DNA from: Anaeromyxobacter sp. | GTDB taxonomy: Bacteria > Myxococcota > Myxococcia > Myxococcales > Anaeromyxobacteraceae | Assembly (NCBI GenBank): GCA_049840735.1 | Contig: JASGJN010000022.1 | Span: 288,001-352,000 of the forward strand | Direction of reading: 5' to 3' | DNA length: 64,000 nucleotides | In this document: positions 12,175-48,169 of the stretch, in pieces | How positions within the stretch are numbered: position 1 is the first letter of the stretch | Layout: each line of letters begins with the position of its first letter | Made by a program: the position numbers and the translations under genes | The notes under the pieces: model-generated | The model's database searches: none | Seen by the model: only the letters and a program-made list of their open reading frames with translations | What the model was told of the DNA's origin: nothing

Positions 12175-12269
12175 CGGCTCGTGGCGCCCCGCTCGCCCTT
12201 CGAGGCGAGCGGGGCCGCTCCACCGCAGGTTCGCAGGAGTTCGCCCGGGAGGGAGAGCCGTTCACGCCC

Positions 12270-12327: not shown

Positions 12328-12355
12328 ACTCCCTGCATCCGGGGCGAGCGGGGCC

Positions 12356-13402: not shown

Positions 13403-13642
13403 GGGCTCGTTCCTGGGCAGGAGGCAGCCGGGGCTGTGACGCAGGGTGAATGGCATCGGGTCGGGACTCCGGGGGCGGGGCGTGGCGCGCGTGTGTTCAG
13501 GCGCCGCCAGCCGCGCGCGAGTGAGGGCGCAGGCCGGCTGGCGCCGGAGCGCGCGGGCAGGATGAGGGGAGGGTGCTGTGATCCCGGCGAGCGAAATCCG
13601 CGCTCGCGGGACGGCCACGGAGTGGCATGGCGTCCTTGCCAG

Positions 13643-13812
13643 CCCGGGTAGGTCTCCTGGCTCGTGGGTTCGGGGGACTTTCCCCCTTGGCCGCCTCCGC
13701 CTTCCCCGGCGCTCTCGCCGAGTGGCTCTCGAAGGCGGCTCCCCACTCACAGTGGCGGGACCGCGCCGGACTCGCACCGGCTTCCCTGTTACGCCCTTCA
13801 CGGGCACCCGGG
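13643..13812 (-). promoter_or_regulatory. Cobalamin riboswitch, copy A
   Basis: AACAGGGAAGCCGGTG...CCCGCCACTGT...AGCCACT...GGGAAGG...GAGCCAGGAGACCT (B12 box); upstream of the cobT paralogue. Confidence 0.95.
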
Positions 13813-13827
13813 GTGTATGTGGGCGCG

Positions 13828-13857
13828 GTGGTAGCCGCTGCGCGGCCGTGGTGTCAA
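13828..13857 (-). promoter_or_regulatory. Sigma-70 promoter candidate for riboswitch A
   Basis: TTGACA-N18-TACCAC; same layout as 31064-31093. Confidence 0.6.
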
Positions 13858-13913
13858 GCGAGCGCGCGCAAGTGGGCGGGAACGGGGCGGTCCCGCTCAC
13901 GCACGCGGCGCCC

Positions 13914-14549
13914 CTACGCCACCCGCCTCGCCCCCTTGCGCAGCTTCTCCATCCCGCGGCCGCAGGCGTTGTTCACCTGGCGCGGCTGCAGGCGCAAGAG
14001 CTTCGCCACCTCGGCGTGCGGGCGCTCCTCGAGCTTCACCAGCGTGATGGCCTGCCGCTCCAGCGGGGTGAGGCGGGCCACGCGCGCGGTCACCTCGGCG
14101 CTGGCGGCGGCGTCGGCGCCGCGCGCGGCGAGCACCTCGGCCGGCTGCGGCGGCGCGGGGAAGGCGCCGGGGTCCTCGGCCAGGCGGTCCAGCGCGCCGT
14201 GGGCGGTGGATTGGTTGCGGATGAGGTTGTAGGCCCGGCCGTGCGCGATGTGGCCGACGTAGGCGCCCAGGGTCCCGCGCGCGGGGTCGAAGTCCTGCAC
14301 GCCGCGGCGCCAGAACACCAGCAGCGTCTCCGACACCACCTCCTCGCGATCGGCCTCGGAGGTCAGCAGGCGCCCGGCCACGGCGGTGGCGATGCGGCGG
14401 GCGCGCACCATCAGCTCGCGGGCAGAGGCGTCGTGCCGGCCGCTGCCGGCCGCGGCGGCGCGGCGGGCCTCGGCGACCAGCTTCGCGTCGAGGGCGTCGC
14501 GGAAGACGGCGCCGGAGAGGGCGCTCGGGCTGGAGGGAATGGTGCGCAC
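13914..14549 (-). CDS. ECF-type RNA polymerase sigma factor
   Basis: Region 2 (ADREEVVSETLLVFWR..FDPARGTLGAYV..IAHGRAYNLIR) and region 4 (LTPLERQAITL..LEERPHAEVAKLL). Confidence 0.85.
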   Translation of the reverse strand: MRTIPSSPSALSGAVFRDALDAKLVAEARRAAAAGSGRHDASARELMVRARRIATAVAGRLLTSEADREEVVSETLLVFWRRGVQDFDPARGTLGAYVGHIAHGRAYNLIRNQSTAHGALDRLAEDPGAFPAPPQPAEVLAARGADAAASAEVTARVARLTPLERQAITLVKLEERPHAEVAKLLRLQPRQVNNACGRGMEKLRKGARRVA

Positions 14550-31093: not shown

Positions 31094-31107
31094 CAGGGAA
31101 GAAATAA

Positions 31108-31279
31108 CCCGGGTGCCCGCATACGGGCGTAACAGGGAAGCCGGTGAGAATCCGGCGCGGTCCCGCCACTGTGAGTGGGGAGCCGCCTTCGAGAAGCCAC
31201 TCGGCGAGAGCGCCGGGGAAGGCGAAGGCGGCGCGAGGGGAAGCTCCCCCGAACCCACGAGCCAGGAGACCTACCCGGG
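31108..31279 (+). promoter_or_regulatory. Cobalamin riboswitch, copy B
   Basis: GGTGCCC..AACAGGGAAGCCGGTGAGAATCCGGCGCGGTCCCGCCACTGT..GAGCCAGGAGACCTACC; heads the B12 operon. Confidence 0.96.
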
Positions 31280-31363
31280 CCAGGCGAGGACGCCATGCCA
31301 CGTGGTGGCCGTCCCGCGAGCGCGGAGATCGCTCGCCGGGACCCTTATCCGGAGTCTTGCGTC

Positions 31364-32173
31364 GTGCCCCCTGCGCGGGAGCGCACCGCTGTCCTGATCC
31401 TGGGACACGGCAGCCGGGTCGCGCGCGCGAACCAACAGTTCGAAGCGCTGGTCGCGGCCTACCGGCGCCGCAGGCCCGACCTGGACATCGCGCACGCCTA
31501 CGTCGAGCTGGCGGCGCCGCTGCTCGCCGAGGCGCTGGCCGCGCTGGCCCGGCGGGCTGATCGCGTGCTGGTCCTGCCGCTGTTCCTCCTGGCGGCCGGC
31601 CACGTGAAGGACGACGTCCCGGAGGCGCTCGCCGCCGCCCGCGCCGCGTTCCCGCAGGTGGGCTTCGGGGCGGCCCGCGCCATCGGCGCCGTGAACGGGC
31701 TGGCCGAGCTGGCGCTGCAGCGGCTGGCGGCGCAGGTGCCGCTCAATGGGCCGGAGGCGGCGCGCACGGCGTTGCTCGGGGTGGGGCGCGGGTCGTCCGA
31801 CTTCGACGCGAACGGCGAGCTGTGCAAGCTGGTGCGCGTGCTGGGCGAGCGCGGCGGGTTCGCGCGCGCCGAGCCCAGCTTCATCGCCGTCACGCGCCCG
31901 CTGGTGCCGCCGGCGCTCGAGGACCTGGCCCGGCTCCACGCCGGCCCCATCCTCGTGTGGCCCTTCTTCCTGTTCGAGGGGCTGCTGATGCAGCAGCTGG
32001 CGCGCGAGGTGGACGCCTTCCGGGCGGCGCACCCGGAGCGTCAGGTGCGCCTGGCCGGACACCTGGGCCTCGACGAGCGGCTCCTGGCCTTGCTCGACGA
32101 GCGGCTGGCGTGGGTCACCGACGGCACGGGCGCCTCGCCCTGCGGCGCCTGCCCCAGGACGGCGGCGGCCTGA
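31364..32173 (+). CDS. cbiX: Sirohydrochlorin cobaltochelatase (two-domain CbiX)
   Basis: LILGHGSR, AYVELAAP, PLFLLAAGHVKDDVP, VGRGSSD..AN, PFFLFEG, C-terminal CGAC. Confidence 0.9.
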   Translation: MPPARERTAVLILGHGSRVARANQQFEALVAAYRRRRPDLDIAHAYVELAAPLLAEALAALARRADRVLVLPLFLLAAGHVKDDVPEALAAARAAFPQVGFGAARAIGAVNGLAELALQRLAAQVPLNGPEAARTALLGVGRGSSDFDANGELCKLVRVLGERGGFARAEPSFIAVTRPLVPPALEDLARLHAGPILVWPFFLFEGLLMQQLAREVDAFRAAHPERQVRLAGHLGLDERLLALLDERLAWVTDGTGASPCGACPRTAAA

Positions 32174-32235
32174 CCGGCGCGGCGGACAGCTGCGTCCGCC
32201 GCCCGCGTTCCATTCGAGCCAAGGCGAGGAGCCCC

Positions 32236-33033
32236 GTGAAGAAGATCTGCCTCGTCGGGATCGGCACCGGCCATCCCGATCACCTGACCATCCAGGCCGT
32301 CCGCGCGCTGGCGCAGGCGAAGGCCTTCTACATCCTGGAGAAGGAGACCGAGCGCAACCAGGACCTGGTGAAGGCCCGGCTCGAGCTGCTGGAGCGCCAC
32401 GCGCCCGGGAAGGATCACCGGGTGCGGCTGGTGCGGATCCCGGCGCGGAGGCGGGGCGGCCGGGCGCTGGCCGACTACCAGGAGCGGGTCTCCGCCTGGA
32501 GGCGGCGGAAGGCCGAGCTGCTCGCGGCCGCGATCCGGGAGGACCTCGGCGAGGGCGAGACCGGGGCCATCCTGGCCTGGGGCGATCCGGCCCTGTACGA
32601 CGGCCACATCGAGATCCTGGAGGAGATCCGGCGCGAGGGGTGGGTGGACTTCGAGCTGGAGGTCATCCCCGGCATCACCAGCATGCAGGTGCTGGCCGCG
32701 CGCCACCGGATCCCGCTGAACCTGGCCGGCGAGAGCGTGCTGGTCACCACCGGCCGGCGCCTGCGCGAACTCGATCCGGCTGGGGTCGAGACCGCGGTGG
32801 TGCTCCTCGACAACGCCCAGTCCTACCGCCGCCTGGGCGAGGCGGAGCTCGACATCTACTGGGGCGCCTACCTCGGGACGGAGGACGAGATCCTCGTCTC
32901 CGGCGAGGCGAGGGCGGTGGTCGACCAGATCGTGCAGGCGCGGCAGGAGGCCCGCAAGCGCAAGGGCTGGGTGATGGAGACGTACCTGCTGCGGGCCCGA
33001 AACGCCCCGCGCAGCCAGGAGGACGCGCCGTGA
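32236..33033 (+). CDS. cobF: Precorrin-6A synthase (deacetylating) CobF
   Basis: GIGTGHPDHLTIQAVRAL, WGDPALYD, IPGITS..LAARHRIPLN, TTGRRL, IYWGAYLGTEDEIL, GWVMETYLLR. Confidence 0.92.
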   Translation: MKKICLVGIGTGHPDHLTIQAVRALAQAKAFYILEKETERNQDLVKARLELLERHAPGKDHRVRLVRIPARRRGGRALADYQERVSAWRRRKAELLAAAIREDLGEGETGAILAWGDPALYDGHIEILEEIRREGWVDFELEVIPGITSMQVLAARHRIPLNLAGESVLVTTGRRLRELDPAGVETAVVLLDNAQSYRRLGEAELDIYWGAYLGTEDEILVSGEARAVVDQIVQARQEARKRKGWVMETYLLRARNAPRSQEDAP

Positions 33034-33651
33034 GCGGGCGCTTGGTGGCGGCGGGGAGGCGGATTCGAGGAGGAGAGCTTCGCGATCATCGATCGCGAGG
33101 CGGGCCGCCACGCGTTCGGCCAGCGCGAGTGGGCGGTGGTGCGCCGGGTGGTCCACGCCACCGCCGACTTCGAGTTCGTGCGGACGCTGGAGCTCCACCC
33201 GGCGGCGGTGGCGGCAGGGGTCGCGGCCCTGGCGGCGGGCGCGTCGGTGGTGGCGGACGTGCGCATGATCGCCGCCGGCCTGCCCCGGCTCGAGGTCCGC
33301 TGCTTCATCGGCGACGCCGACGTGGTCGAGGCGGCGCGGGCCGCCGGCACCACCCGAGCCGCCCAGGCCATGCGCAAGGCGGCGCGCCTGGGGCTGCTCC
33401 AGGGCGCGGTGATCGCGGTGGGAAACGCGCCCACCGCGCTGTCCGAGCTCCAGCGCCTGTGCCTGGAGCAGGGGGTCCGGCCGGCGCTGGTGGTGGCCGT
33501 GCCGGTCGGCTTCGTGGGCGCGGCCGAGTCGAAGGAGGCCGCGCGGGCGCTGCCGGTGCCCTGGGTCGTCTCCCGGGGGCGAAAGGGCGGCACGCCGGTC
33601 GCCGTGGCCATCCTGAACGCGCTGGCCCTCCTGGGCGAGGAGGCGTCATGA
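33030..33651 (+). CDS. cobH: Precorrin-8X methylmutase CobH/CbiC (apparent frameshift at 33062)
   Basis: IEEESFAIID, RRVVHATADF, GNAPTAL, PVGFVGAAESK, GRKGG. Confidence 0.92.
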
Positions 33652-34892
33652 GCCGGCTGGTCGCGCTGATCGGCGTCGGCGCCGACGGCCGCGCAGGGCT
33701 GACCGCACGGGCCGAGGCGGCCCTCGCGGCGGCCGAGGTGCTGGCCGGCGGCGAGCGCCACCTCGCGCTCTTCCCCGACTTCCGGGGCGAGCGGCTGGTG
33801 ATGGGCAAGGACCTGGCCGCGGCGGTGGAGCGGCTCGCGGCGCTGGCCGCGGAGCGCGCCGTGTGCGTGCTCGCCTCGGGCGACCCGCTCTTCTTCGGCG
33901 TGGGCGCGCGCATCCTGGCGCGCCTGGGGGCGGACCGGGTCGAGGTCCTGCCCCAGCCCAGCTCGATGCAGTGGGCCTTCGCCAGGGCCGGGATGTCCTG
34001 GGAGGACGCGGCGCTGCTCTCGGTGCACGGGCGGGCGCTCTCCGGCGTGGCCGCGCGGCTGCGGCGCGCCCGAAAGGCCGCCGTCCTCACCGGGGGTCCG
34101 GAGGGCCCCGCGGCGCTGGCGCACCACCTGGTCGTACACGGCGAGCGCGGGCTGGCGGCCTGGCTGTGCGAGGACCTGGGCGGCCCGGCCGAGCGCGTGC
34201 GCCGCTTCGCGGATCTCGAGGCGCTGGCCGCCGCCGGTGAGGCCGCGCCGCTCAACCTGGTGCTGCTCGCGCGGCAGGACCCGGCCTGGCGGCCGCCGCC
34301 GGCGCTCCTCCACCTGCCCGAGGAGGCGCTGGAGATGCGCCGCCCGCGCGCCGGCCTGGTGACGAAGCGCGAGGTGCGGGCGCTGGTCCTGGCTGCGCTC
34401 CGGCTCCGGCCCGACGCGGTGGTGTGGGACGTGGGCGCGGGCTCGGGTTCGGTGGCCCTCGAGGCGGCGGCCCTGGCGCCGGAGGGGCGGGTCTACGCGG
34501 TGGAGCGCAACGCCGAGTCGGCCGCCCACTGCCGCGCCAACGCGCGCGCCCACGGGATGGACCAGCTCACGGTGGTCGAGGGCGCGGCCCCGGAGGCGCT
34601 CGCGCGGCTGGAGGCGCCGGACGCGGTCTTCGTCGGCGGGAGCGGCGGCGCGCTGGAGGCCATCGTGGCGGCGGCGCTGGCGCGGCTCCGCCCCGGCGGG
34701 CGGCTGGTGGTGGCGGCGGTGACGCTCGAGACCCTGGAGGGCGCGCGCCGTGCGCTGGCGGCGGGCGGCGCGGTCCCGGAGCTCATCCTGGTGTCCGCAG
34801 CGCGCGGCGTCCCGGTGGGCGAGCGGTTGCGGCTCGACCCGCTGACGCCGGTCTTCCTGCTCGCGGCCACGCGCCCGGGGGACCGCCCGTGA
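33648..34892 (+). CDS. cbiE: Precorrin-6Y C5,15-methyltransferase (decarboxylating), CbiE-CbiT fusion
   Basis: GGERHL, ASGDPLFFG, LSVHGR, VTKREVR, WDVGAGSGSV, DAVFVGGSGG. Confidence 0.93.
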   Translation: MSRLVALIGVGADGRAGLTARAEAALAAAEVLAGGERHLALFPDFRGERLVMGKDLAAAVERLAALAAERAVCVLASGDPLFFGVGARILARLGADRVEVLPQPSSMQWAFARAGMSWEDAALLSVHGRALSGVAARLRRARKAAVLTGGPEGPAALAHHLVVHGERGLAAWLCEDLGGPAERVRRFADLEALAAAGEAAPLNLVLLARQDPAWRPPPALLHLPEEALEMRRPRAGLVTKREVRALVLAALRLRPDAVVWDVGAGSGSVALEAAALAPEGRVYAVERNAESAAHCRANARAHGMDQLTVVEGAAPEALARLEAPDAVFVGGSGGALEAIVAAALARLRPGGRLVVAAVTLETLEGARRALAAGGAVPELILVSAARGVPVGERLRLDPLTPVFLLAATRPGDRP

Positions 34893-35611
34893 GCGCCACC
34901 CTCCTCGGCGTCGGGGTCGGCCCCGGCGCGCCGGACCTCCTCACGCTCCGCGCGGTGGCGGCGCTGCGCGGCGCGCCGGTCCTGGCCGCGCCGCGGACCT
35001 CGGACGAGGCCGAGCCGCTGGCCTGGCGGATCGCGCGGGAGGCGGCGGGCGAGGTGCCCGGCCAGGAGCGGCTGCTCCTCACCTTCCCCATGACCCGCGC
35101 CCCGTCCGTGCGCGCGGCGGCCCGGGAGGCGGCGGTGGCCGCGGTGGCGGCGCGCCTGGCCGCGGGCCGCTCGGTGGCCTTCGTGACCGAGGGTGATCCG
35201 CTGCTCTACAGCACCTTCCTCGATCTGCTCGAGGCGGCGCCGCGGGCCGGCGCGCGCGTCGAGGTGGTGCCCGGGATCTCGTCGGTGACCGCCGTGGCGG
35301 CCGCCGCCTGCGTTCCGCTGGCCGACGGCGAGGACGCGGTGGCGGTGCTGCCGGCGGCCCGCGCGCTGCGCGACCTGCCCGGCCTGGTGCGCGCGTTCGA
35401 GACCCTGCTGCTGCTCAAGGCCGGGCGGCACCTGCCGGCGCTCGCCGCCGGGCTGGGGGAGCTGGGGCTGGCGGGGCAGGCCTGGGCGGTCACCAACGCC
35501 AGCCGTCCCGACCAGCAGGTGACGCCGCTCACCCGGCTGGAGGCGACCGCCCCGCAGGCCGGCTACTTCACGACCGTCCTGGTGCGGACGGCGCCGGAGC
35601 TGCGTCCATGA
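34889..35611 (+). CDS. cobI: Precorrin-2 C20-methyltransferase CobI/CbiL
   Basis: GVGVGPGAPDLLTLRA, FPMT, EGDPLLYSTF, VPGISS. Confidence 0.9.
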   Translation: MSATLLGVGVGPGAPDLLTLRAVAALRGAPVLAAPRTSDEAEPLAWRIAREAAGEVPGQERLLLTFPMTRAPSVRAAAREAAVAAVAARLAAGRSVAFVTEGDPLLYSTFLDLLEAAPRAGARVEVVPGISSVTAVAAAACVPLADGEDAVAVLPAARALRDLPGLVRAFETLLLLKAGRHLPALAAGLGELGLAGQAWAVTNASRPDQQVTPLTRLEATAPQAGYFTTVLVRTAPELRP

Positions 35612-36700
35612 GGCGCCGGCTCGCCATCCACGCCGCCACGGCCGGCGGCGCGCGCCTCGGTCGGCGGATTGCCGCGGGCCTCGGCGGCGAGCTGTTCGCG
35701 GCCGAGCGCTTCGCCGCGGAGGTGGGGGGCGCGCCCGTTCGCCCTGCCGATGCGCGACGCGGTGGCAGGGGCCTTTCGCGCCCACGACGCCCACGTCTTC
35801 GTGCTGGCGGTCGGGGCCACGGTGCGGCTGGTGGCCCCGCTCCTGACCCGCAAGCAGGCCGATCCGGCGGTGGTGTGCGTGGACGAGGCCGGCCGGTTCG
35901 CGGTGGCGCTGCTCGGGGGTCACCGCGGCGGGGCCAATGCGCTGGCCGGCGAGGTGGCGGCGGCCATCGGCGCCACCCCCGTGGTCACAACCGCCTCCGA
36001 CGTGCTGGGAACGCTGGCGGTGGATTTGCTGGGGCGCGAGCTGGGCTTCGTGCTGGAGGATCCGGGCGGAGTGGCCACGCGCGCCGCGGCGGCGGTGGTG
36101 AACGGCGAGCCGGTCGCGCTGGTACAGGAGGCCGGCTCGCGCGCCTGGTGGCCCGCCGGCGAGCCGCTGCCGCCGAACCTCACCCCGCTCTCCTCGGCCG
36201 ACGCGCTCGACCCCGACCGGTTCGCCGCTGCGCTGATCATCAGCGACCGGCTCCTGGCCGGCCCGCTGCGCGTCCGCGCGCTGCTCTACCGGCCGCCGAC
36301 CCTGGCGGCCGGGGTGGGCTGCGACCGCGGCGCGCCGGCCGCTGCCATCCTGGGGGCGCTCGAGGCCGTGCTGGCCGGGCGCGGACTGGCCCGGGCCTCC
36401 GTCGCGTGGCTGGCCTCCGTGGACGTGAAGCGGGACGAGGCGGGCCTCATCGAGGCCGCCGCGGCGCTGGCGCGGCCGCTGCGCCTCTACCCGGCCGGCG
36501 AGCTCGACGCCGTCCCCGGCCTCGAGCGCCCATCGGAGGTGGTGCGCCGCTGCGTGGGGACGCGCGGCGTGTGCGAGCCGGCCGCGCTGCTCAGCGCCGG
36601 CGCCGACCGCCTCCTCGTCCCCAAGCAGCTCCACCGCGATCCCGACTCCGGCAAGGCCGTGACCATCGCGATCGCCCGCATCCCGCAGGAGCAGGCATGA
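35608..36700 (+). CDS. cbiG: Cobalt-precorrin-5A hydrolase CbiG (apparent frameshift near the G-run at ~35725)
   Basis: AVGATVRLVAP, K..DPAVVCVDE, LLGGHRGGAN, PVVTTASD, GVGCDRG, GVCEPAAL. Confidence 0.9.
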
Positions 36701-37488
36701 GCCGGGGTTCCTTGAAGGTGGTCGGCCTGGGGCCGGGCGCCCACGATCAGCTGACGCCGGCCGCCAGGGCCGCGCTGGAGGAGGCCGAGGTGGTCCTCGG
36801 CTACCGTCCCTACCTCGAGCTGGCCGGACCGCTGCTGGCCGGCAAGGCGCGGGTGGACGGGCGCATGCGCGGCGAGACCGATCGGGCGCGGGACGCCATC
36901 GACCGCGCGCGCCAGGGGCGACGCGTGGCGCTGGTCTCCTCCGGCGACGCCGGCGTGTACGGGATGGCGGGCCTGGTGCTCGAAATCCTGCGCGACCAGG
37001 GCTGGCGGCGCGGCGACGGCTTCGACCTGGCCGTCCTCCCCGGCGTCACCGCGCTCGGCTCGTGCGCGGCGCTGGCCGGCGCGCCGCTGGGCCACGACTT
37101 CTGCGCCATCTCGCTCTCCGACCTGCTCACGCCCTGGGAGGTGATCGCGCGGCGCCTGGAGGCGGCCGCGGCGGCGGACTTCGTGGTGGGCCTGTACAAC
37201 CCCGCCAGCACCCGGCGGCGCCGTCCGCTGGCCGAGGCCCACGCCATCCTCTCGCGCCACCGTCCGGCCACCACGCCTGTGGCGGTGGTGACCGACGCCT
37301 ACCGCGAAGGCCAGCGGGTGGTGCTGAGCGACCTGGGGCGGCTCCTCTCCGAGGAGATCGGCATGACCACCACCGTGGTGGTGGGAGCGACCAGCACCTT
37401 CGCCTTCGAGGGCTACCTGGTCACGCCGCGCGGCTACGGCGACAAGTACGGCGGCGAGCGCGGGCTGGCCGGGGAGGCGCGGCCATGA
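36697..37488 (+). CDS. cobJ: Precorrin-3B C17-methyltransferase CobJ/CbiH
   Basis: VVGLGPG, VSSGDAGVYGMA, GAPLGHDFCAISLSDLLTPW, LYNP, TPRGY. Confidence 0.95.
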   Translation: MSRGSLKVVGLGPGAHDQLTPAARAALEEAEVVLGYRPYLELAGPLLAGKARVDGRMRGETDRARDAIDRARQGRRVALVSSGDAGVYGMAGLVLEILRDQGWRRGDGFDLAVLPGVTALGSCAALAGAPLGHDFCAISLSDLLTPWEVIARRLEAAAAADFVVGLYNPASTRRRRPLAEAHAILSRHRPATTPVAVVTDAYREGQRVVLSDLGRLLSEEIGMTTTVVVGATSTFAFEGYLVTPRGYGDKYGGERGLAGEARP

Positions 37489-38249
37489 AGGTCTGGTTCG
37501 TGGGGGCAGGCCCGGGGGCGCCGGACCTCATCACCGTGCGTGGCGCCGAGCTGGTGGCCCGGTGCCCGGTGGTGCTGTACGCCGGCTCGCTGGTCCCGCG
37601 GGCCGTGGTGGCCCGCGCCCGGCCGGACGCCCTGGTCCTCGACAGCGCGGGCATGACGCTGGACCAGATCGTGGAGGTCTTCGTCGAGGCCCGCCGCCGC
37701 GATCAGGACGTGGCCCGCGTGCACACCGGCGACCCCTCGCTCTTCGGCGCCATCGGCGAGCAGCTGCGCCGGCTCGACGCGCTGGGCATCGAGCACGAGG
37801 TGGTCCCGGGCGTCTCCTCGTTCACCGCCGCGGCCGCCGCGCTGCAGTGCGAGCTCACGCTGCCGGGCGTCTCGCAGGCGGTGATCGTGGCCCGGGCGGC
37901 GGGGCGGACGCCCGTCCCGGCCGGCCAGGAGCTGGCGGCGCTGGCGCAGCACCGGGCCACGCTGGCGCTGTTCCTGTCGGCAGGGCTGCTGGAGGAGGCG
38001 GTGGCGGCGCTGGCGCCGGCCTACGGCGCCGGCTGCCCGGCCGCCATCGTCCACCGCGCCAGCTGGCCCGACCAGCGCGTGCTGCGAGGCCGGCTGGAGG
38101 AGCTCCCGGCGCTGGCGCGCGCGCACGGGATCGGCGCCACCGCGATGGTGCTGGTGGGCCAGGCGCTGGGGGCCGGCGAGTTCCCCGACTCGCGGCTGTA
38201 CGCGGCGGAGTTCGCCCACGGGTTCCGCACGCCGGAGGTCGAGCCATGA
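37485..38249 (+). CDS. cobM: Precorrin-4 C11-methyltransferase CobM/CbiF
   Basis: FVGAGPGAPDLITVRG, YAGSLV, RVHTGDPSLFGA..EQ, ASWPDQ, SRLY..F.HGFR. Confidence 0.95.
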   Translation: MKVWFVGAGPGAPDLITVRGAELVARCPVVLYAGSLVPRAVVARARPDALVLDSAGMTLDQIVEVFVEARRRDQDVARVHTGDPSLFGAIGEQLRRLDALGIEHEVVPGVSSFTAAAAALQCELTLPGVSQAVIVARAAGRTPVPAGQELAALAQHRATLALFLSAGLLEEAVAALAPAYGAGCPAAIVHRASWPDQRVLRGRLEELPALARAHGIGATAMVLVGQALGAGEFPDSRLYAAEFAHGFRTPEVEP

Positions 38250-39564
38250 CGCCGCTGCGCATCGCCGTCACCGGCTCGGCCGGCACCGGCAAGACCACGC
38301 TGGCGCGGATGCTGGCGGAGCGGCTGGGGCTGCCGCTGGTGGCCGAGGAGACCCGCGCCTGGCTGGAGGGCGGCGGCCCGTGCCTGTCTTCGCTGCCGCC
38401 GGCCCGGGCGCGCGAGGTCCTCTCCGAGCTGTGGCGGCGCCGGCAGGCCGCGGAGCGGGCCCACCCTCGCGGCTTCGTGGCCGACAACTGCAGCCTCGAC
38501 TTCGCCGCCTACGCCCTGCACCACGGCTGCGCCGCCGAGGGGGACGCGGGCTCCGCCGCGCTGCTGGCGGAGGCCTCGGCGCACCTCGCGAGCTACGACG
38601 CCGTCCTGGTCCTGCCGTGGGGAGCCATCCCCTACGCGCTCGACGGCGTGCGCTCGCCCGAGCCGGCGCTGGAGCTCAGGTACCAGCTGGTGCTGGAGGG
38701 GCTGCTCCGGCGCGACGGCAATCCCGAGCGCGTACACGCGGCGGCGGCCGGGCCGGCCTCGCCCGCGGCGCGGCTGGCCTGGGCGCTGGAGGTGGCCGGC
38801 CGCGCGCGCCCCGGGAGCGGCTGGGTGGCGCTGGTGGGCGCGGGTCCAGGCGATCCCGGCCTCCTCACCGTCCGCGCCCGCGCGCTGCTCGCCTGCTGCG
38901 ACGTCGTCGCCTACGACGAGCTGGTCCCCCCGGCGCTGCTGGCGCTGGTGCGCCCCGGCGCCGAGCGCCTGGCCGTGGGCCGCCGCTGCCACGGCCGGCG
39001 GGCGCCCATGCGGCTCCATCCGGACGTGCTGGAGCGGGCCCTGGCCGGGAAGCGCGTGGTGCGCCTCAAGGCCGGCGATCCCTTCGTGTTCGGCCGCGGC
39101 GGCGAGGAGGCGGAGGACCTGGCGCGGGCCGGCGTGGCCTTCGAGGTGGTGCCGGGGATCTCCGCCGCGCTGGGGGCCGCGGCCGCGGCCTGGATCCCGC
39201 TCACCCACCGGGAGCTGAGCTCGGACGTCACCTTCGCCACCGGCCATGACCTGACCCACGCCGCCCTGCCGGCCCGGAGCGCCTGGGCGGCGCTGGCGCC
39301 GGGCGGGACCCTGGTCCTCTACATGGCCTCGCGCTCGCTGGCGCGGAACCTCTCCCGGCTGGTGGCGCATGGGCGATCGCCGACCACGCCTGCAGCCTGG
39401 ATCGCCGCGGCCACCCGGCCTGAGCAGCAGGTGGTGGTGGGCACGGTGGGCGACCTCGCCTCCCGGGTCGGCGAGCAGGGGGACGCCCCGGCCCTGGTGA
39501 TCGTCGGGGAGGTGGTGCGGGTGCGTGAGCGGCTGCAGGCCCTGGTGCAGGCCGGGAGGGCCGC

Positions 39565-39568
<4 letters not shown>
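38246..39568 (+). CDS. cobA: Fusion of a NadR-like P-loop (AAA_28-type) domain and uroporphyrinogen-III C-methyltransferase
   Basis: N-terminal [25 protein letters not shown]....DGVR; C-terminal [43 protein letters not shown]. Confidence 0.88.
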
Positions 39569-40103
<535 letters not shown>

Positions 40104-40104
<1 letters not shown>

Positions 40105-41463
40105 TGCGCGCCGCAATCCCTGCGCTGGTGCTGGGCGCGGCCTCGAGCGGGAGCGGCAAGACCACCCTGGCGGTGGCGCTCTGCGCCGCGCTGCGGGCGC
40201 GCGGGCTGCGCGTCGCCCCCTTCAAGTGCGGGCCGGACTACCTCGACCCCGGCCATCACGCCCGCGCAGCCGGCGCGGCCAGCCACAACCTCGACGGCTG
40301 GATGATGGGCGAGGAGGCGGTAAGGGCCACCTTCGCCCGCGCCGCGGCCGGCGCCGACGTGGCGGTGGTCGAGGGCGTGATGGGGCTCTTCGACGGCGCC
40401 GGTCCGGCCACCGACGCAGGGTCCACCGCCGAGATCGCCCGCTGGCTGGGGGCCCCGGTGGTCGCGGTCCTGGACGCGTCGGGCATGGCGCGGACCGCGG
40501 CGGCGGTGGCGCAAGGCCTGGCCGGCTTCGATCCGCGGGATCCGGGTGGGCGCGCTGGTCTGCAACCGCGTGGGGAGCCGCGGCCACCTCGAGCTCTTGC
40601 GCGAGGCGGTGACCGGACCGCCGGTGATGGGCGGCCTCCCGGCCCGCGACGAGCTGGCCTTCCCGGAGCGTCACCTGGGGCTGGTCACCGCCGCCGAGGC
40701 GCTGCCGGACGAGCGGATCCGCGCCTGGGGCGCGCTGGCCGAGGAGTGGCTGGACCTGGACGCGCTCCTGGCGCTGGCCAGCACGGCCGCGCCGGTCGAG
40801 GCCCCCGGGGCGCCTGCCTCCGTCATGGGGCGCCGGTGCCGGATCGGCGTGGCCCAGGACGAGGCCTTCCACTTCTACTACGCCGACAACCTGGCCCGGC
40901 TGGAGGCGCTCGGCGCGGAGCTGGTGCCGTTCTCGCCGGTGCGCGACGCCTGGCTCCCCGAGGTGGACGGGCTGCTCCTGGGCGGCGGCTATCCGGAGGA
41001 GCACGCTGGCGCGCTGGAAGCGAACAGGTCCATGCGCGAGGCGATCCGCGGCTTCGCGGCGGCGGGGCGGCCCATCTACGCCGAGTGCGGCGGCCTCATG
41101 TACCTGGCCACCGCGCTCCGCGGCCGCGACGGGCGCGAGCACCAGATGGTGGGGCTGGTGCCCGGCGTGGCGGTGGTGCGCGACCGGCTCCAGGCGCTGG
41201 GCTACGCCGAGGTGACCACGCGGGCCCCCTCGCTGCTCGGCCCGGCCGGCCTGGTCTTCCGCGGCCACCAGTTCCGCTACTCCGAGCTGGAGGTCGATCC
41301 CGCCGTCGAACGCGTCTACCAGCTCGCGCGACGGCGGGGTGCGCCGCTGCTGGAGGGGTACCGGGTGGGCTCGGTGCTCGCCTCGTACGTGCACGCCCAC
41401 TGGGCCTCCTGCCCCGAGGTGGCCCGGGCGCTGGTCGAGGCCTGCGCGAGGAGATCGCCGTGA
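40104..41463 (+). CDS. cbiA: Cobyrinate a,c-diamide synthase CbiA/CobB (apparent frameshift at ~40538)
   Basis: [54 protein letters not shown]. Confidence 0.93.
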
Positions 41464-42017
41464 ACGAGGTGATCCTGGTGGGCGGCGGCGTGCGGTCGGG
41501 CAAGAGCGCCTTCGCGCTCGGGCTGGCGCGGCGCCTGGGCGCCCGGCGCGCCTTCGTGGCCACCGCCCAGGCGTTCGACCGCGAGATGGAGGAGCGGATC
41601 GCCGCCCACCGCGCCGAGCGCGCCTGCGGGTTCACCACCATCGAGGAGCCGCTGGACCTGCCACGCGCGTTCGCCGCCGCCGCCGAGGGGGGCGCCGAGG
41701 TGGTGGTGGTGGACTGCCTCACGCTCTGGCTCTCCAACCTGGTGCTGCGCGGCGACTCGGCCGCGCAGGCCGCCGCAGAGGTGGAGCGCCTGGCGCAGGA
41801 GCTGGCCCGGCGCCGCCTCCACGCCGTCGTCGTCACCAACGAAGTCGGCATGGGAGTGGTGCCCGAGCACGCCCTGGGCCGCCTCTTCCGCGACGTCGCC
41901 GGCCGGGCGCACCAGCGCCTGGCCCGCGACGCCGATCGCATCTACCTCGCCGCGCTGGGGTGCGTCCTGCGCCTCCGCCCCAACCCCGTCACACTCGCCA
42001 ACCCTGAGGAACCATGA
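41460..42017 (+). CDS. cobU: Adenosylcobinamide kinase/adenosylcobinamide-phosphate guanylyltransferase
   Basis: [41 protein letters not shown]. Confidence 0.95.
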
Positions 42018-43073
42018 CCCTGCTCGATCAGACCCTCGCCGCCCTCCCCGAGCCCGATGCGTCCGCCGCCGCCGAGGCCCAGCGGCGCCTCGATCTCAAG
42101 ACCAAGCCGCGCGGCAGCCTCGGGCGCCTGGAGGCGCTGGCGTGCCGCCTGGCCGCCGTGCAGGGCACGCCCGCGCCGCACGCCGAGCGGAAGGCGGTGG
42201 TGGTGATGGCCGCCGACCACGGGGTGGCCGAGGAGGGCGTCTCCGCCTTTCCGCAGGAGGTCACCGCCCAGATGGTGGCCAACTTCGCCCGCGGCGGCGC
42301 CGGCATCAACGTGCTGGCCCGGCAGGCCGGCGCGCGCGTGGTGGTGGTGGACATCGGCGTGAAGGCGCCCATCGCGGGTCTGCCTGGCGTGCTCGACCGC
42401 CGCGTCGCGCCCGGCACGCGGAACCTGGCGCGCGGCCCGGCCATGACGCGGGCGGAGGCGGTGCGCGCGCTGGAGGCCGGGATCGAGGTGGCGGTCGGGC
42501 TCGCCGGGGAGGGGGTGGACGTGATCGCCATCGGTGAGATGGGGATCGCCAACACCACCGCCGCGAGCGCGCTGACCTCGGCCTTCACCGGCGCGGCCGC
42601 GGACGAGGTCACCGGCCGCGGGACCGGGATCGACGCGGCGGCCCACGCGCGCAAGGTGGCGGTGGTGAGCCGGGCGCTGGCGGCGAACCCGGTCGAATCC
42701 GGCCGATCCGCTGGGCACGCTGGCGGCGCTGGGCGGGCTGGAGATCGCCGGCATGGCGGGCGTGGTGCTCGGGGCGGCCGCCCGCCGCGTGCCGGTGGTG
42801 GTGGACGGCTTCATCGCCAGCGCGGCGGCGCTGGCGGCGGTGCGGCTGGCCCCCCGCGCCGCCCATGCGCTCATCGGCGCCCACCGCTCGGTGGAGGCCG
42901 GCCACCGCGCCGTGCTCCAGGCGCTCGACCTGCGGCCGCTGCTCGACCTGGACCTGCGGCTGGGCGAGGGAACGGGCGCGGCCCTGGCGCTCCACCTGGT
43001 GGAGGCGGCGGTCCGGATCCTGGTCGAGATGGCCACCTTCGAGGCCGCCGGCGTGAGCGACGCGGAGCGCTAG
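42014..43073 (+). CDS. cobT: Nicotinate-nucleotide--dimethylbenzimidazole phosphoribosyltransferase (apparent frameshift at 42695)
   Basis: [55 protein letters not shown]. Confidence 0.95.
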
Positions 43074-43078
43074 CCGCC

Positions 43079-44017
43079 ATGCTCGCCGCCTCGCTCCACG
43101 CCGGCGCGGTCCTGGCCGCCGCCCTCCTGATCGACGCGCTGGCCGGGGAGTTCCCGGCCCGCCTCCACCCGGTCGTGTGGATGGGGCGGGTGATCACGCT
43201 GCTGGAGCGGCGGGCGCCGCGCAAGGGGCGGGCGCTGCCGTTCCTGTACGGCCTGGGCATGGCCCTCGCCGTCCCGGCGCTCTTCGCCGGCGGCGCCGCG
43301 CTCGCGATCCGGGCCGCGCGGGGCCAGCCGCTCCTGGCGGTGCTGGTCGAGGCCCTGCTCCTCAAGTCCGCCTTCGCGGTGCGCGCGCTGGGCGAGGCCG
43401 CGGCGGAGGTGGCGAGCGCGCTGCAGGCGGGCGAGCTCGACCGGGCCCGCGGCGCGCTGCGCGCCCTCTGCAGCCGCGACCCCGCCACCCTGGAGGCCGG
43501 GCAGGTGGCGGCGGCGGCGGTCGAGTCGGTGGCCGAGAACGCCTCGGACAGCGCGGTCGCGCCGCTGCTCTGGTGGGCGCTCCTGGGCGTCCCGGGCGCG
43601 ATCGCCTACCGGGCCCTCAACACGCTCGACGCGCGGATCGGATATCACGGTAGGTACGAGTGGCTGGGGAAGGCCTCCGCCCGGCTGGATGACCTGGCCA
43701 ACCTGGTGCCGGCCCGGGTCACCGCGGCGCTGCTCCTGGGCGCTGGCGCCGTCCGGGGCGGGTGCGTGCGGCGCGGCCTGGCCATCCTGCGCCGCGACGG
43801 GGCCAGGACCGAGAGCCCCAACGCCGGCCGTCCCATGGCGGCCATGGCCGGGCTGCTCGGGGTCGAGCTGGCGAAGGAGGGACACTACCGGCTGGGCGAT
43901 CCGGGCGCGCCGGTGGACGCGGGCACCATCGGCGCGGCCTGGCGACTCTCCGCGACCGCGGCCCTGGGGGCGGCCATCGCGGCCTTCCTGGTGGCGGGGG
44001 CGCTCCATGGCGCGTGA
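43079..44017 (+). CDS. cbiB: Adenosylcobinamide-phosphate synthase CbiB
   Basis: [50 protein letters not shown]. Confidence 0.94.
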
Positions 44018-45285
44018 CGGTGGCGGCCATTCAGGACCTGGGCTTCGACTTCGCGAGCCCTGCGGGCTCGCTACGCCCAGCCCGAACGGTGCTGGAGAGA
44101 CCGCTCGCCCTGAGCCCTTCGACTTCGCGTCCGCTCCGCGAACGCTACGCTCAGGGCAGGCGGAGTCGGAGGGCGCCGCTGGAACGGCTGGCCTCGTCAG
44201 CGCGTGGGCTCGATGCGCTGGTCCGGCGGTGCCGTTGTCCGCCCGGGTCCACGGCGGGCGCAAGGTGGCGGAGCTCGCGGCGCTCGGGCTGGACCCTTCC
44301 GCCGTGCTCGACCTGAGCGTCAACGTGAACCCCTACGGCCCGGCGCCGGCCGTGGTGGCGGCGGTGCGCGCGGCGCCGCTGGAGGCCTACCCGGACCCTT
44401 CCGCCAGCGCGGTGCGCGCCGCGCTGGGCGCGCGCTGGGGGCGGGCGCCGGAGGAGGTCCTGTTCGGGAATGGCGCGGCCGAGCTCCTGTGGGACCTGGC
44501 GCGTCACCTGGCCAGGACCGGCGCGCGGACCCTGCTGGTGGAGCCGGCCTTCTCCGAGCTCCGGGTGGCGCTGGCGGCCGCGGGCGGCGACGCGTGCGAG
44601 TGGCGCGCTTCACCCGAGCGCGGGCTCGCCCTCGAGCTCGACGCCATCGGCGAGGCGCTGGTCCGGAGCGGTGCGCGGGCCGCCTACCTGGCCGCGCCGA
44701 CCAGCCCGGGCGGCGCGGCGGTGCGCTCGGAGCACGTGGCGGCCCTGGCCCGCGCCCACCCCGAGGTGTTGCTGGTGCTGGACGAGTCCTTCCTGGCCCT
44801 CTCCGACGGGCACGCCGACCTCGAGCGCCCGCTGCCCGCCAACCTGGTCCGGCTCCGCTCGCTCACCAAGGAGCACGCCATCCCCGGGCTCCGGGTGGGC
44901 TACCTGCTGGCCGCGCCGGAGCTGGTGGCGGCGCTGGAGGCGGCGCGGCCGACCTGGTCCACCAGCGCCCCCGCGCAGGCGGCCGCGCTCGCCGCCCTCG
45001 GCGAGGAGGCGTTCGTGGCCGATAGCCGCGAGCGGCTGCGCCTCGAATCGCGAGGCCACGCGCGAGGGGCTGGAGCGGCTGGGGCTGGCGCCGCTCCCCT
45101 CGACGGCGCCCTACCTGATCTTCCCCGTCCCCCGCGCGGCCGCGCTGCGCGCCCGCCTGCTCTCCCGCGGCGTGCTGGTGCGCGACTGCGCGTCCTTCGG
45201 GCTTCCCGGCTATCTTCGCGTGGCGGCGCGCCCCGGGTCCGAGCGCGCCCGCCTGCTCGCCGCCCTCTCCCAGGAGCTCGCATGA
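44007..45285 (+). CDS. cobD: L-threonine-O-3-phosphate decarboxylase (class I/II PLP enzyme); start 44007 or GTG 44229; apparent frameshift at 45045
   Basis: [57 protein letters not shown]. Confidence 0.88.
44040..44175. repeat. Cluster of structured REP-like repeats: one full copy (44040-44089) plus a nested double copy (44101-44175)
   Basis: GGGCTTCGACTTCGCGAGCCCTGCGGGCTCGCTACGCCCAGCCCGAACGG, then CCGCTCGCCCTGAGC[CCTTCGACTTCGCG..CGCTACGCTCAGGG]..CGGAGTCGGAGGGCG. Confidence 0.82.
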
Positions 45286-46821
45286 CCGCCGCCGTCCTGA
45301 TGGTGCAAGGCACCGCCTCCTCCGTGGGCAAGAGCCTGGTGGTCACCGGTCTTTGCCGGCTGTTCCGCCGCGCCGGCCTCCGCGTGGCGCCGTTCAAGGC
45401 GCAGAACATGGCCCTCAACTCGGCCGTGGCGGCGGACGGGGGCGAGATCGGGCGCGCGCAGGCGGTGCAGGCGGAGGCCGCCGGGATCGACCCCACGGTG
45501 GACATGAACCCGGTGCTGCTCAAGCCCGAGGGCGAGGCTCGCGCGCAGCTGGTGGTGAACGGCCGGCCCGCCGGTAGCTACAGCGCGGGCGAGTACCACG
45601 GCCGCAAGGTGGAGCTGCGCGCCGCCGTCCGCGCCGCGCTGGGTCGGCTGCGGGAGCGGGTCGACCTGGTGATCATCGAGGGCGCAGGCAGCCCGGCCGA
45701 GGTGAACCTCAAGGACCGGGACATCGTGAACATGGACGTGGCGAAGGCGGCCGGCGCCCGGGTGCTGCTGGTCGGGGACATCGACCGGGGCGGCGTGTTC
45801 GCCGCGTTCGTGGGGACGCTGGAGCTGCTCGAGCCGGAGGAGCGCGCCCTGGTGGCCGGCTTCGTCGTGAACAAGTTCCGCGGCGACGTGCGCCTGCTCG
45901 AGCCCGGGCTGGACTTCCTCGCGGCGCGCACCGGGGTGCCGGTCGCCGGGGTGCTCCCGTTCCTGCGCGGGCTCCGCATCGCCGAGGAGGACTCGGTCTC
46001 GCTCGACCAGCGGCGACGCACCCGGCGCGCCGCGCCCGGGGAGCTGGAGAATCGCGGTGGTGCGCCTTCCGCGCATCTCCAACCACGACGAGCTGGACCC
46101 GCTCGAGCACGAGCCGGGCGTGGTGCTGCGCTTCGTGGAGCGGCCGGAGGAGCTCGCCGGCGCCGACCTGGTGATCCTGCCGGGCTCCAAGGCCACCGCG
46201 GCCGACCTGGCCTGGCTGCGGGCCAGCGGCCTGGCCGACGCGGTGATGTCGCGGGCCGGGCGGGGTGACCTGGTGCTCGGGATCTGCGGCGGCTTCCAGA
46301 TGCTGGGGCGCGCGCTGCTCGATCCCGACGGCGTGGAGGGGCAGGAGCCGGAGGTGCCCGGGCTCGGGCTCCTGCCGGTGGTCACCACCTTCCGCCGCGA
46401 GAAGACCACCGCGCGCGTGCTCGGCGCGCTCGAGCCCTCGGCGCTCTTCGCGGCCGGGGCGGCCCGAGGCTACGAGATCCACATGGGCGAGGTGCAGCGG
46501 CTGGAGGGGGCACCGCCGGCCCTCCGGCTCACCGCGCGCAACGGCGAGCCCTGCGACATCGAGGACGGGGCGGTGTCGCCCGGCGGCGCCGTGGTGGGGA
46601 CGCTGGTCCACGGGCTGCTCGAGGACGACGCGGTCCGCGCCGGCCTGCTGGCGCGCCTGCGGGCCCGCCGCGGCCTCCCCGCGCCGGCGTCCCCGCCCGT
46701 CGCCACCCGCGAGGAGGAGTACGACCGGCTGGCGGATGCGCTGGCGGCGCACCTCGACTGGACGCTGCTCTGCTCGGCGGCGGGGCTGCCCGCGCTCCCC
46801 AGGCCGGGGGCGCGGACGTGA
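45282..46821 (+). CDS. cobQ: Cobyric acid synthase CobQ/CbiP (apparent frameshift at 46049)
   Basis: [63 protein letters not shown]. Confidence 0.95.
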
Positions 46822-47546
46822 GGCGGCTCGCCGTCGCGGCGTCGTTCCTCACCGCCCTGCCGCTGCGCGTGGACGCGGACGCGTGCGACGTGGGCCGGTC
46901 CACCGCCTGCTTCCCGCTGGTGGGCGCCGCGCTGGGGGCGGCGCTGGCCGGGTTGGCGGCCCTGCTCGCCCGCGCGCTGCCGTCGCCGCTGGTGGCGGTG
47001 CTGCTGGTGGCGGCCTCGGCGATGGCCACCGGCGCGCTGCACCTCGACGGCATGGCCGACACCGCCGACGGCCTGGGCGGCGGACGCGACGCCGAGCACG
47101 CCCTGCGCATCATGAAGGACCACGCGGTGGGCGCCTACGGCGCGACGGCGCTGGTGCTGGCGCTGCTGGTGAAGGCGACCGCGCTCCAGGCGCTGATCGC
47201 GGAAGGGCGCGCCATGACCTGGCTGCCGGTGGCCGGCGCGCTGTCCCGCTGGATCGTGGTCCCGCTGGCGCGGCTCCCCAGCGCGCGGCCGTCCGGGCTC
47301 GGCGGCTCGATCGCGGCGCACGTGGGAAGGGCCGAGCTCGCCGCTGCGTCGGCGCTGGCCGCGGGCTTGGCGCTGGGGCTGGGCGGAGCGAGGGGCGCGG
47401 TGGTCGCTGCGGCGGTGGCGGCGCTCGGCGCAGCCTGCGGCGCGCTCTTCCGGCGGCGCCTGGGCGGCGTGACCGGCGACACGCTGGGCGCCTCGGCGGA
47501 GCTCTCCGAGGCGCTGGCGCTGGTGCTGGCGGTGGGGCTCCGGTGA
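46818..47546 (+). CDS. cobS: Adenosylcobinamide-GDP ribazoletransferase
   Basis: FLT.LP, FPLVG, TGALHLDGMADTADG, LRIMKD..VGAYG, GGVTGDTLGA..E. Confidence 0.95.
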   Translation: MRRLAVAASFLTALPLRVDADACDVGRSTACFPLVGAALGAALAGLAALLARALPSPLVAVLLVAASAMATGALHLDGMADTADGLGGGRDAEHALRIMKDHAVGAYGATALVLALLVKATALQALIAEGRAMTWLPVAGALSRWIVVPLARLPSARPSGLGGSIAAHVGRAELAAASALAAGLALGLGGARGAVVAAAVAALGAACGALFRRRLGGVTGDTLGASAELSEALALVLAVGLR

Positions 47547-48169
47547 TCGGCGCGCCGCCGGAGGGCGCCGCGCGGCTGGTGCTGCTGCGCCACTGCCAGG
47601 CGGAGGTGCCCCCCGGCGTGCTGTGCGGCCGGCTCGACCCGCCGCTCTCGATTGCAGGCGGCGCGCACGCCGCGAGGCTCGCCGCCGCGCTGGCCGGCCT
47701 GCGGGGCGCGACCGTCCACGCCAGCCCCGCCCGCCGCGCGCAGGAGACGGCGGCCCCCATCGCGCGCGCCCTGGGCATCGAGGTCGAGGTCCAGCCCGCG
47801 CTGCGCGAGGTCGACTTCGGATCGCTGGAGGGGCTCACCTGGCAGCAGGCCGCGGCTGCGCATCCGGAGGTCTGCCGGACGTGGCTCGCGCGCCCCGAGG
47901 AGGTCCGCTTCCCTGGGGGCGAGGGATACGGGGAGGTGCAGGACCGCGCGACGGCCGCCGTCGAGGCCATCGCGCGCGGGCGTGAAGGTGCGACGGCGGT
48001 CGTGGTCGCGCACGCCGGGGTGAATCGGGCCGTGCTGGCCTGGGCGTTGGGTGCGCCGCCCGCGACCGCCTTCCGGCTGGAACAGCGGCACGGGGCGATC
48101 AACGTGCTGGAGCGGTTCGGCGACGGGACCTGGGTCCTGCGGCTGGCGAACGGCGCCGAGCTGGCGTGA
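47543..48169 (+). CDS. cobC: Histidine phosphatase, probable alpha-ribazole phosphatase
   Basis: LLRH, SPARRA.ETA, LREVDFG..EG, FPGGE, VAHAGV; last gene of the cob operon. Confidence 0.82.
   Translation: MIGAPPEGAARLVLLRHCQAEVPPGVLCGRLDPPLSIAGGAHAARLAAALAGLRGATVHASPARRAQETAAPIARALGIEVEVQPALREVDFGSLEGLTWQQAAAAHPEVCRTWLARPEEVRFPGGEGYGEVQDRATAAVEAIARGREGATAVVVAHAGVNRAVLAWALGAPPATAFRLEQRHGAINVLERFGDGTWVLRLANGAELA

Follow-up and report, generated by a model that had tools for sequence, protein, structure and literature searches.

A 64,000-nucleotide stretch of the Anaeromyxobacter sp. assembly GCA_049840735.1 (contig JASGJN010000022.1, positions 288,001 to 352,000 of the forward strand; G+C content 75%; hereafter the window) contains, inside a riboswitch-headed cob operon, a gene that joins a kinase-like P-loop domain to uroporphyrinogen-III methyltransferase (SUMT/CobA). 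We confirm that this fusion, written kinase~CobA below with the tilde marking domains in one chain, is real and no assembly artefact: its RefSeq orthologue is collinear and its operon position is kept in 10 of 10 loci. The kinase domain belongs to an undescribed family that is tied to cobamide genes by gene fusions, riboswitch operons and CbiB-positive genomes. Tentatively, we read it as a candidate lower-ligand riboside kinase of the alpha-ribazole type that would perform an accessory salvage step, a possibility that has to be weighed against several others.

The fused gene

The original prediction, drawn from the nucleotides alone, was of a NadR/AAA_28-like domain of about 185 residues running in-frame into an intact SUMT/CobA, and this is what profile searches recover in a single open reading frame (ORF) of 440 residues. 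Pfam AAA_28 (PF13521) matches residues 5-159 of the fused protein above its gathering score (E 3.6e-16; 60.3 bits versus a cut-off of 27), spanning profile positions 1-151 of 164, and TP_methylase matches residues 194-405 (E 3.2e-48). The CobA part (residues 192-432) exceeds the cut-offs of both NCBIfam TIGR01469 cobA_cysG_Cterm (243.3 versus 185 bits) and NF004790 (253.8 versus 198 bits). Every motif listed in the prediction is present in the translation, namely GSAGTGKT at residues 10-17, E34..R37, F77-V-A-D80..D85..Y89, Y117-D118 and D133-G-V-R136. The gene is translationally coupled to both neighbours, its ATG overlapping the cbiF stop codon (ATGA) and its TGA overlapping the GTG start of cobO. 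Public annotation passes over the kinase domain, naming such proteins just 'uroporphyrinogen-III C-methyltransferase' or 'histidine phosphatase family protein'.

A stop-free linker had been described between the two domains. The interval 38700-38830 indeed contains zero stop codons in all three plus-strand frames, but there is no long spacer: in the full-length AlphaFold model (predicted local distance difference test, pLDDT, 83.3; predicted template modelling score, pTM, 0.55) the last kinase helix covers residues 173-187 and CobA strand one begins at residue 193, so that the connector measures about 5 residues. That two genes were merged by an indel error in assembly or annotation is effectively refuted, for although at least five single-base frameshifts lie in or beside the operon in this assembly, they coincide with GANTC/GATC motifs, and GANTC is absent from the fused gene; moreover, the protein (P0001) aligns end-to-end with a 442-residue RefSeq protein, 'MULTISPECIES Anaeromyxobacter' (74% identity, 3 gap positions), the kinase-domain match lies in an uninterrupted frame in every one of the 16 positive genomes among 401 Myxococcota sampled, and 56 fused homologues are of many origins. 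All 10 Myxococcota loci retrieved share the order cbiF, kinase~cobA, cobO, cbiA.

The kinase domain, its family and its distribution

Modelled alone with AlphaFold 2, the kinase domain reaches a pLDDT of 93.3 (built with 30 homologues). Its best Foldseek match is NadR 8x7f (TM 0.76; root-mean-square deviation, rmsd, 2.7 Å), and the top five VIA-align matches are all ribosylnicotinamide kinase (RNK) domains of NadR (6gyf, Z 19.2; 6gye, 18.9; 8x7f, 18.8; 6gzo, 18.4; 1lw7, 17.1), after which come a deoxynucleoside kinase (Z 16.6) and others of its kind, thymidylate kinases and deoxycytidine kinases, none of them above 16.6; the 50 structural matches listed are all nucleoside or nucleotide kinases. 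Conservation was read from two alignments, A1 and A2 (30 and 24 homologues). Invariant or near-invariant positions comprise the Walker A residues G10, G15 and K16 (K16 conserved to 90% or more in A1 and without exception in A2), E34, R37, D80, D85, P124, D133-G134-x-R136 and R176, around a conserved core rich in aromatic residues (W63, F77, F86, Y89, Y117, Y130 and Y146). Profile and structure searches thus agree with the predicted NadR/AAA_28-type, kinase-like character of the domain, with catalytic motifs intact, and the domain is probably catalytically active.

The likeness to the NadR RNK domains (6GYF, 6GYE, 8X7F, 6GZO and 1LW7) extends to the AAA_28 family, the fold (Z 17.1-19.2; rmsd 2.6-3.0 Å over 162-182 residues) and the motif layout (Walker A, E..R, D..D, DGxR), whereas sequence identity is 15-20%, the nicotinamide mononucleotide adenylyltransferase (NMNAT) and helix-turn-helix (HTH) domains are missing, and the fusion partners are enzymes of B12 rather than NAD metabolism. 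Membership in NadR, defined by NMNAT plus RNK above cut-off in TIGR01526/NF005988, does not extend to the fused protein, which scores 17.7 bits on TIGR01526 (cut-off 341.15) through P-loop residues 5-41 only. The same genome encodes a genuine NadR-type NMNAT+RNK gene without HTH outside the window (G000:C22, ~615.9-617.0 kb), which scores 155 bits on TIGR01526, below the cut-off of 341; the B12-clade family profile gives the RNK domain of that protein 10 bits. By sequence, then, the kinase domain stands far from true NadR despite the shared fold.

Other searches with the N-terminal domain returned P-loop matches alone from NCBIfam (best 23.7 bits), P-loop-level matches only from PDB sequences, and only generic AAA_28 clusters from the ESM Atlas, many labelled viral and offering no functional lead. 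No GHMP family is among the Pfam matches of the fused protein at E up to 1, PF02110 (ThiM/hydroxyethylthiazole-kinase-like) does not match it, and CobU/CobP (PF02283) is absent from the Pfam matches listed for P0001 and for P0002 (25 of 29 families listed). The C-terminal part is an ordinary SUMT, as in multidomain SUMT proteins such as CysG, differing in that its N-terminal partner is a kinase-like P-loop domain and not the Rossmann domain of CysG-N; on the CysG profile NF007922 the fused protein scores 270.1 bits (cut-off 400) over profile positions 212-450 only, which leaves it outside that family.

Relatives were gathered by a library-wide phmmer search (600 representatives at E up to 0.001, 101 of them at E up to 1e-10) and a word-indexed search over proteins of 242-770 residues (83 proteins). 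Pooled with locus-derived sequences, 235 match the profile, of which 214 covering at least 140 profile positions were kept and 21 dropped. Each was assigned an architecture by phmmer against four reference segments: 113 are stand-alone or unassigned (some of these, such as P0098, being fragments of fusions), 45 CobC-like~kinase, 28 kinase~CobA, 19 kinase~CobA~HemD, 6 kinase~HemD and 3 kinase~CobA~CobO (P0006, P0032 and P0088, in which CobO, the product of the next gene in the window, is part of the same polypeptide). CobA-HemD fusions thus occur downstream of this kinase domain too. The suggestion that homologues would be linked to cob genes therefore holds, with 101 of the 214 sequences fused to B12 enzymes and all 16 kinase-bearing Myxococcota genomes CbiB-positive. 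Further members came from a profile search of genome contigs with the A1 pattern, the P-loop itself (at least five loci confirmed), and from a metagenome scan with P0069 (four loci). In the literature consulted, mostly without subscription journals and supplements, we found no description of this kinase family in B12 metabolism.

In a FastTree phylogeny (SH-like support, midpoint root), all fused forms fall within one clade of 143 sequences (support 99). The CobA-, HemD- and CobO-fused forms make up a 62-sequence clade (support 100) that includes the window gene, 56 of the 62 being fused to CobA and/or HemD, and the CobC-like fusions lie within a 56-sequence sister clade (support 96). The catalytic core is common to the two clades, which differ at adjoining positions, the window clade having E35, R66, N81, Y89, A90 and Y130 where the sister clade has G35, Q66, R81, F89, W90 and L130. 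Stand-alone sisters carry the sister-clade set, which is apparently ancestral, and the predicted pocket of the window clade, in which R145 also counts among the derived residues, would then be the derived one.

Among the 401 Myxococcota genomes, 16 contain a strong match to the A1 kinase profile (E <=7e-50) and 32 contain CbiB, including all of those 16; the other 16 CbiB-positive genomes have no kinase-profile match at E up to 1e-10. Four sibling operons, from two genomes of the same genus (G323 and G369) and two of the same family (G027 and G397), have the same synteny with a stand-alone cobA placed 39-138 nt after cbiF. No hidden kinase copy came up in eight kinase-less loci when all six frames were searched with hmmsearch (E up to 10), the positive control L049 being recovered, and in these four genomes the domain was found nowhere else. 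Because in Myxococcota it occurs only alongside CbiB and sibling operons are intact without it, the kinase domain is B12-specific but accessory: it is dedicated to B12 yet dispensable in half of the CbiB-positive Myxococcota. BluB presence shows no pattern with kinase presence. As a separate observation, the kinase-less same-genus operon of G323 (L089, 17339-18100, +) has an AP_endonuc_2 gene (xylose-isomerase-like TIM barrel) between cobQ and cobU, possibly a CbiR-type cobamide-remodelling enzyme; a 231-residue ORF considered at this place lies in the wrong frame and was discarded in favour of the AP_endonuc_2 protein.

Beyond Myxococcota, a strong kinase match was found in 6 of 301 sampled Planctomycetota genomes, five times as a CobC-like~kinase fusion and once as the same pair in two overlapping genes. 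The phosphatase part best matches alpha-ribazole phosphatase (TIGR03162) at 128.8-152.7 bits, below the cut-off of 162.9. Directly upstream and on the same strand in four of the six loci are BtuF-, BtuC- or BtuD-type importer genes, recognized by Peripla_BP_2 in L011, by ABC_tran in L081, by FecCD in Pfam with the ATPase seen by eye in L083, and by FecCD in Pfam with BtuF-like and ABC-ATPase ORFs seen by eye in L079, where the order is cobalamin riboswitch, btuF, btuC, btuD and CobC-like~AAA_28 fusion (9697-13963, -). CobT, CbiB, CobS and CobU have no match in any of the six genomes, which are metagenome-assembled genomes (MAGs) given without completeness values, and MetH and a PduO-type adenosyltransferase are present in all five that were searched; with nucleotide-loop genes unmatched and these two enzymes present, the genomes look like those of B12-importing users. 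The pairing of kinase and histidine phosphatase in one chain recalls 6-phosphofructo-2-kinase/fructose-2,6-bisphosphatase, a P-loop kinase with a His_Phos_1 phosphatase, from which the CobC-like~kinase proteins differ in their reversed domain order and kinase family, and the analogy does not imply a shared metabolite.

Other neighbourhoods were seen in passing. In another CobC-like~kinase subclade (L099, 4780-11050; L102, 3851-13725; L101), the fusion is flanked by a Rieske-domain protein of 540-620 residues, which overlaps the fusion start in L102, and a secreted HEAT-repeat protein of ~900 residues; L102 also has MetH downstream. In two unrelated genomes, a stand-alone AAA_28 gene stands immediately upstream of B12-binding radical-SAM genes (L010, 9857-13689, +; L048, 9646-11751, +), with two such neighbours in L010, whose genome has CobT, CobS and CobU and no CbiB match. 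Weaker AAA_28 homologues gave no such neighbour in 34 of 35 loci, most of them only ~3.5 kb long, and the single exception (L030) is the same place in G252 as L048.

Candidate substrates and roles

The reading we prefer, as possible but more doubtful than probable, is that the kinase domain is a lower-ligand riboside kinase of the alpha-ribazole type. It would use ATP to phosphorylate a nucleoside of the cobamide pathway, most likely at the 5'-OH of alpha-ribazole, and the resulting alpha-ribazole-5'-phosphate would feed CobS, the fusion to CobA or HemD reflecting co-expression or stoichiometry and not shared chemistry. A riboside is favoured over an amino acid as the putative acceptor because of the fold relatives, the CobC-like partners of the sister clade and the salvage-like distribution. 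The sister-clade partner likewise speaks for the ribazole nucleotide moiety: its best match is TIGR03162, and the CobC of the window operon itself falls under the same cut-off (132.5 versus 162.9 bits). Also in favour are the cobalamin riboswitch that heads one sister-clade operon, the many aromatic residues of the conserved core, and the finding that this genome has no ThiM/CblS-type kinase above the Pfam cut-off. The proposed reaction, alpha-ribazole + ATP -> alpha-ribazole-5'-phosphate, is that of CblS from Listeria and other Firmicutes, which works with the transporter CblT, and the accessory, salvage-type distribution is similar too. CblS, which we take to be a member of the ThiM/hydroxyethylthiazole-kinase-like family (PF02110), would differ in having an unrelated fold. 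One survey places CblS in 3.2% of species, mostly Firmicutes (PMC6461909).

Several points weigh against the alpha-ribazole reading. The proposed substrate derives from family resemblance. CobT is encoded twice in the window and alpha-ribazole phosphate is therefore obtainable without a kinase; in the six Planctomycete MAGs, whose completeness is not given, this compound is without known use. A role in nucleotide-loop assembly leaves the fusion to the entry-step enzymes CobA and HemD, found in 56 of 62 window-clade sequences, unexplained. Since the predicted pocket of the window clade is derived, what the gene neighbourhoods of the sister clade suggest may not hold for it. BluB, finally, does not track the kinase.

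A second and rather unlikely reading makes the domain a non-GHMP L-threonine kinase that supplies L-threonine-O-3-phosphate to CobD, the step of PduX and BluE. The genome encodes CobD and CbiB without a PduX/BluE-like GHMP kinase: the three GHMP kinases in this 94%-complete genome are best assigned as galactokinase, heptose-7-phosphate kinase and IspE. The statement that the operon lacks a recognisable pduX or alpha-ribazole kinase thus stands and applies genome-wide, the best PF02110 (ThiM/CblS-type) match scoring 22.7 bits, below the cut-off of 27. We know of no source of L-threonine phosphate wherever PduX and BluE are missing, and to our knowledge alpha-ribazole salvage outside Firmicutes is understood for CblS/CblT only. 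The missing-gene problem exists more widely, pduX being absent from most verified cobamide producers according to the same survey (PMC6461909). Also consistent with L-threonine are the restriction of the CobA/HemD-fused clade to CbiB-positive Myxococcota (16 of 16) and the charged or polar pocket residues E35, R66, N81 and R145 gained by the window clade together with the loss of W90, which would suit a small charged acceptor. Such an enzyme would share the pathway position of PduX, BluE and DabA and, as with pduX, its gene lies among cob genes, but the L-threonine kinases PduX, BluE and DabA named in two sources (PMC10906522; PMC6249242) are of the GHMP family, with motifs I-III and IV given in the former, and the domain here is P-loop and nucleoside-monophosphate-kinase-like; all of its listed structural matches, as noted, act on nucleosides or nucleotides.

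The distribution does not favour L-threonine either. A complementary occurrence with PduX-like kinases was not borne out: GHMP_kinases_N matches, counted as matches and not as individually identified genes, number 0-2 in kinase-less and 1-4 in kinase-bearing genomes, so no PduX-like gene replaces the kinase domain in the four siblings that keep the same operon. The earlier proposal of a non-orthologous kinase for the pathway therefore survives in its kinase-like fold and B12-linked family and loses the idea that the domain fills a pduX gap, which gains no support from the distribution. In addition, the sister clade occurs in genomes without matches to CbiB, CobS, CobT or CobU, and the ancestral role was therefore neither that of an L-threonine kinase nor the supply of alpha-ribazole phosphate to CobS.

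It is also conceivable, if improbable, that the domain supplies no intermediate and instead binds nucleotides or cobamides to regulate or assist SUMT and HemD, for instance as a feedback sensor for the completed nucleotide loop or through ATP-dependent control over the flux that passes the uroporphyrinogen III branch point. The choice of CobA and/or HemD as partner in 56 of 62 window-clade sequences, rather than of just any gene in the operon, the short connector, and the dispensability of the domain in sibling operons, as a regulator could be, all fit such a role. Yet the residues that mark active kinases, namely the Walker A lysine with Asp, Glu and Arg on the acceptor side, are all invariant, the full-length pTM of 0.55 predicts no confident fixed packing between the domains, and none of the reactions of tetrapyrrole synthesis is known to require ATP.

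A kinase acting on the ribose 5'-OH of the complete cobamide (cobalamin -> cobalamin-5'-phosphate), which would reverse CobC in a kinase/phosphatase cycle, suits both clades. It would fit the translational coupling of CobC-like~kinase to btuF, btuC or btuD in four of six Planctomycete loci, one of them riboswitch-headed, in host genomes that lack CobS, CobT, CobU and CbiB matches and have MetH and PduO-type enzymes in 5 of 5 searched; the change of W90 to A in the window clade would enlarge the pocket. We nevertheless regard it as very improbable: a kinase and a phosphatase fused on one metabolite look futile, and neither such a kinase activity nor any role for cobalamin-5'-phosphate outside biosynthesis is known to us.

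Hardly to be expected is a pyridine-riboside kinase like the RNK of NadR, which would convert nicotinamide or nicotinate riboside to nicotinamide or nicotinate mononucleotide (NMN or NaMN) and so feed CobT. The closest solved structure is the NadR RNK and CobT consumes NaMN, but a separate NadR-type gene in the genome makes this role less necessary, the family profile scores that gene's RNK domain at only 10 bits, NaMN is an ordinary NAD intermediate, and the B12-riboswitch/btuFCD operons of CobT-less genomes would be left unexplained.

The cob operon and wider implications

The operon (Table 1) reads cbiX, cobF, cbiC, cbiET, cbiL, cbiG, cbiH, cbiF, [kinase~cobA], cobO, cbiA, cobU, cobT, cbiB, cobD, cobQ, cobS, cobC. 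Its cobF stands where the relatives L049, L090 and L009 have CbiD, and between cbiA and cobU it lacks the CbiZ gene of its relatives; the genome, 94% complete, yields no CbiJ/CobK match. Outside the main operon, behind a cobalamin riboswitch of its own, lies another intact CobT homologue. Myxococcaceae-type cob operons (L009, 1978-3100, +) have DUF3209 and FAD_binding_6 oxidoreductase genes between cbiX and cbiD.

Table 1 Features of the fused gene, its operon and a second CobT locus (positions counted from the first nucleotide of the window)
Feature	Position	Strand	Evidence or extent
kinase~cobA fusion gene, 440 residues, single ORF	38246..39568	+	ATG 38246 to TGA 39568
N-terminal kinase-like domain, residues 1-188	38246..38809	+	Pfam AAA_28 5-159, fold to helix 173-187
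Walker A / P-loop GSAGTGKT, residues 10-17	38273..38296	+	translation
Acceptor-side and LID motifs E34-E35-x-R37, D80-N81, D85, Y89, Y117, Y130, D133-G-x-R136	38345..38656	+	A1/A2 invariant columns; clade-specific positions 35, 66, 81, 89, 90 and 130
Inter-domain connector, about residues 189-192	38810..38821	+	secondary structure of full-length model
SUMT/CobA domain, residues 192-440	38819..39565	+	TIGR01469, NF004790
Cobalamin riboswitch heading operon	31105..31282	+	Rfam RF00174, 97.2 bits
cob operon, 18 genes	31364..48169	+	NCBIfam (cbiX-cobU); three-frame translations and tblastn to relatives' operons (cobT-cobC)
cobF	32110-33033		TIGR02434, 297.8 bits
cbiF	37485..38249	+	TIGR01465, 320.7 bits
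cobO/btuR-type corrinoid adenosyltransferase	39565..40104	+	NCBIfam; start overlaps fused-gene stop
cobU	41460-42017	+	NCBIfam scan; separate from fused gene
Second intact CobT homologue	12356-13456	-	PF02277, 349 bits
Second cobalamin riboswitch	13630-13826	-	93 bits

Four operon genes, cbiA, cobT, cobD and cobQ, contain one reading-frame switch each, and a PfkB gene shortly before the riboswitch has one too. Comparison by tblastn with orthologues of the same-genus genome G138 places the switches at 40538/40540 in cbiA, 45046/47 in cobD and 46036-46049 in cobQ, and three-frame translation places that of cobT near 42690. Every switch coincides with a GANTC site (42695, 45045, 46049 and 30369) or with a GATC one base short of GANTC (40539), against a GANTC density of only 1.2 per kb. 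From their position, the five frameshifts probably do not reflect gene decay but systematic indel errors of sequencing at a methylated motif.

For cobamide biology, the kinase domain is a concrete, clonable candidate of ~190 residues for biosynthetic steps that are unassigned in most producers, and the presence of the sister clade in riboswitch/btuFCD operons of bacteria without nucleotide-loop assembly raises the prospect that vitamin B12 is processed after import in a step outside current models. It is conceivable, though we consider it improbable, that the family comprises ATP-dependent kinases whose target is the ribazole 5'-OH, free or as part of the finished cobamide, with CobC-type phosphatases working in the opposite direction. 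Were this true, producers would use the kinase fused to entry enzymes, pure B12 importers would use the CobC-fused form coupled to BtuFCD, and vitamin B12 trafficking would include an undescribed phosphorylation cycle. A role of either kind, in biosynthesis or after import, would change the genome-based prediction of cobamide producers and salvagers.

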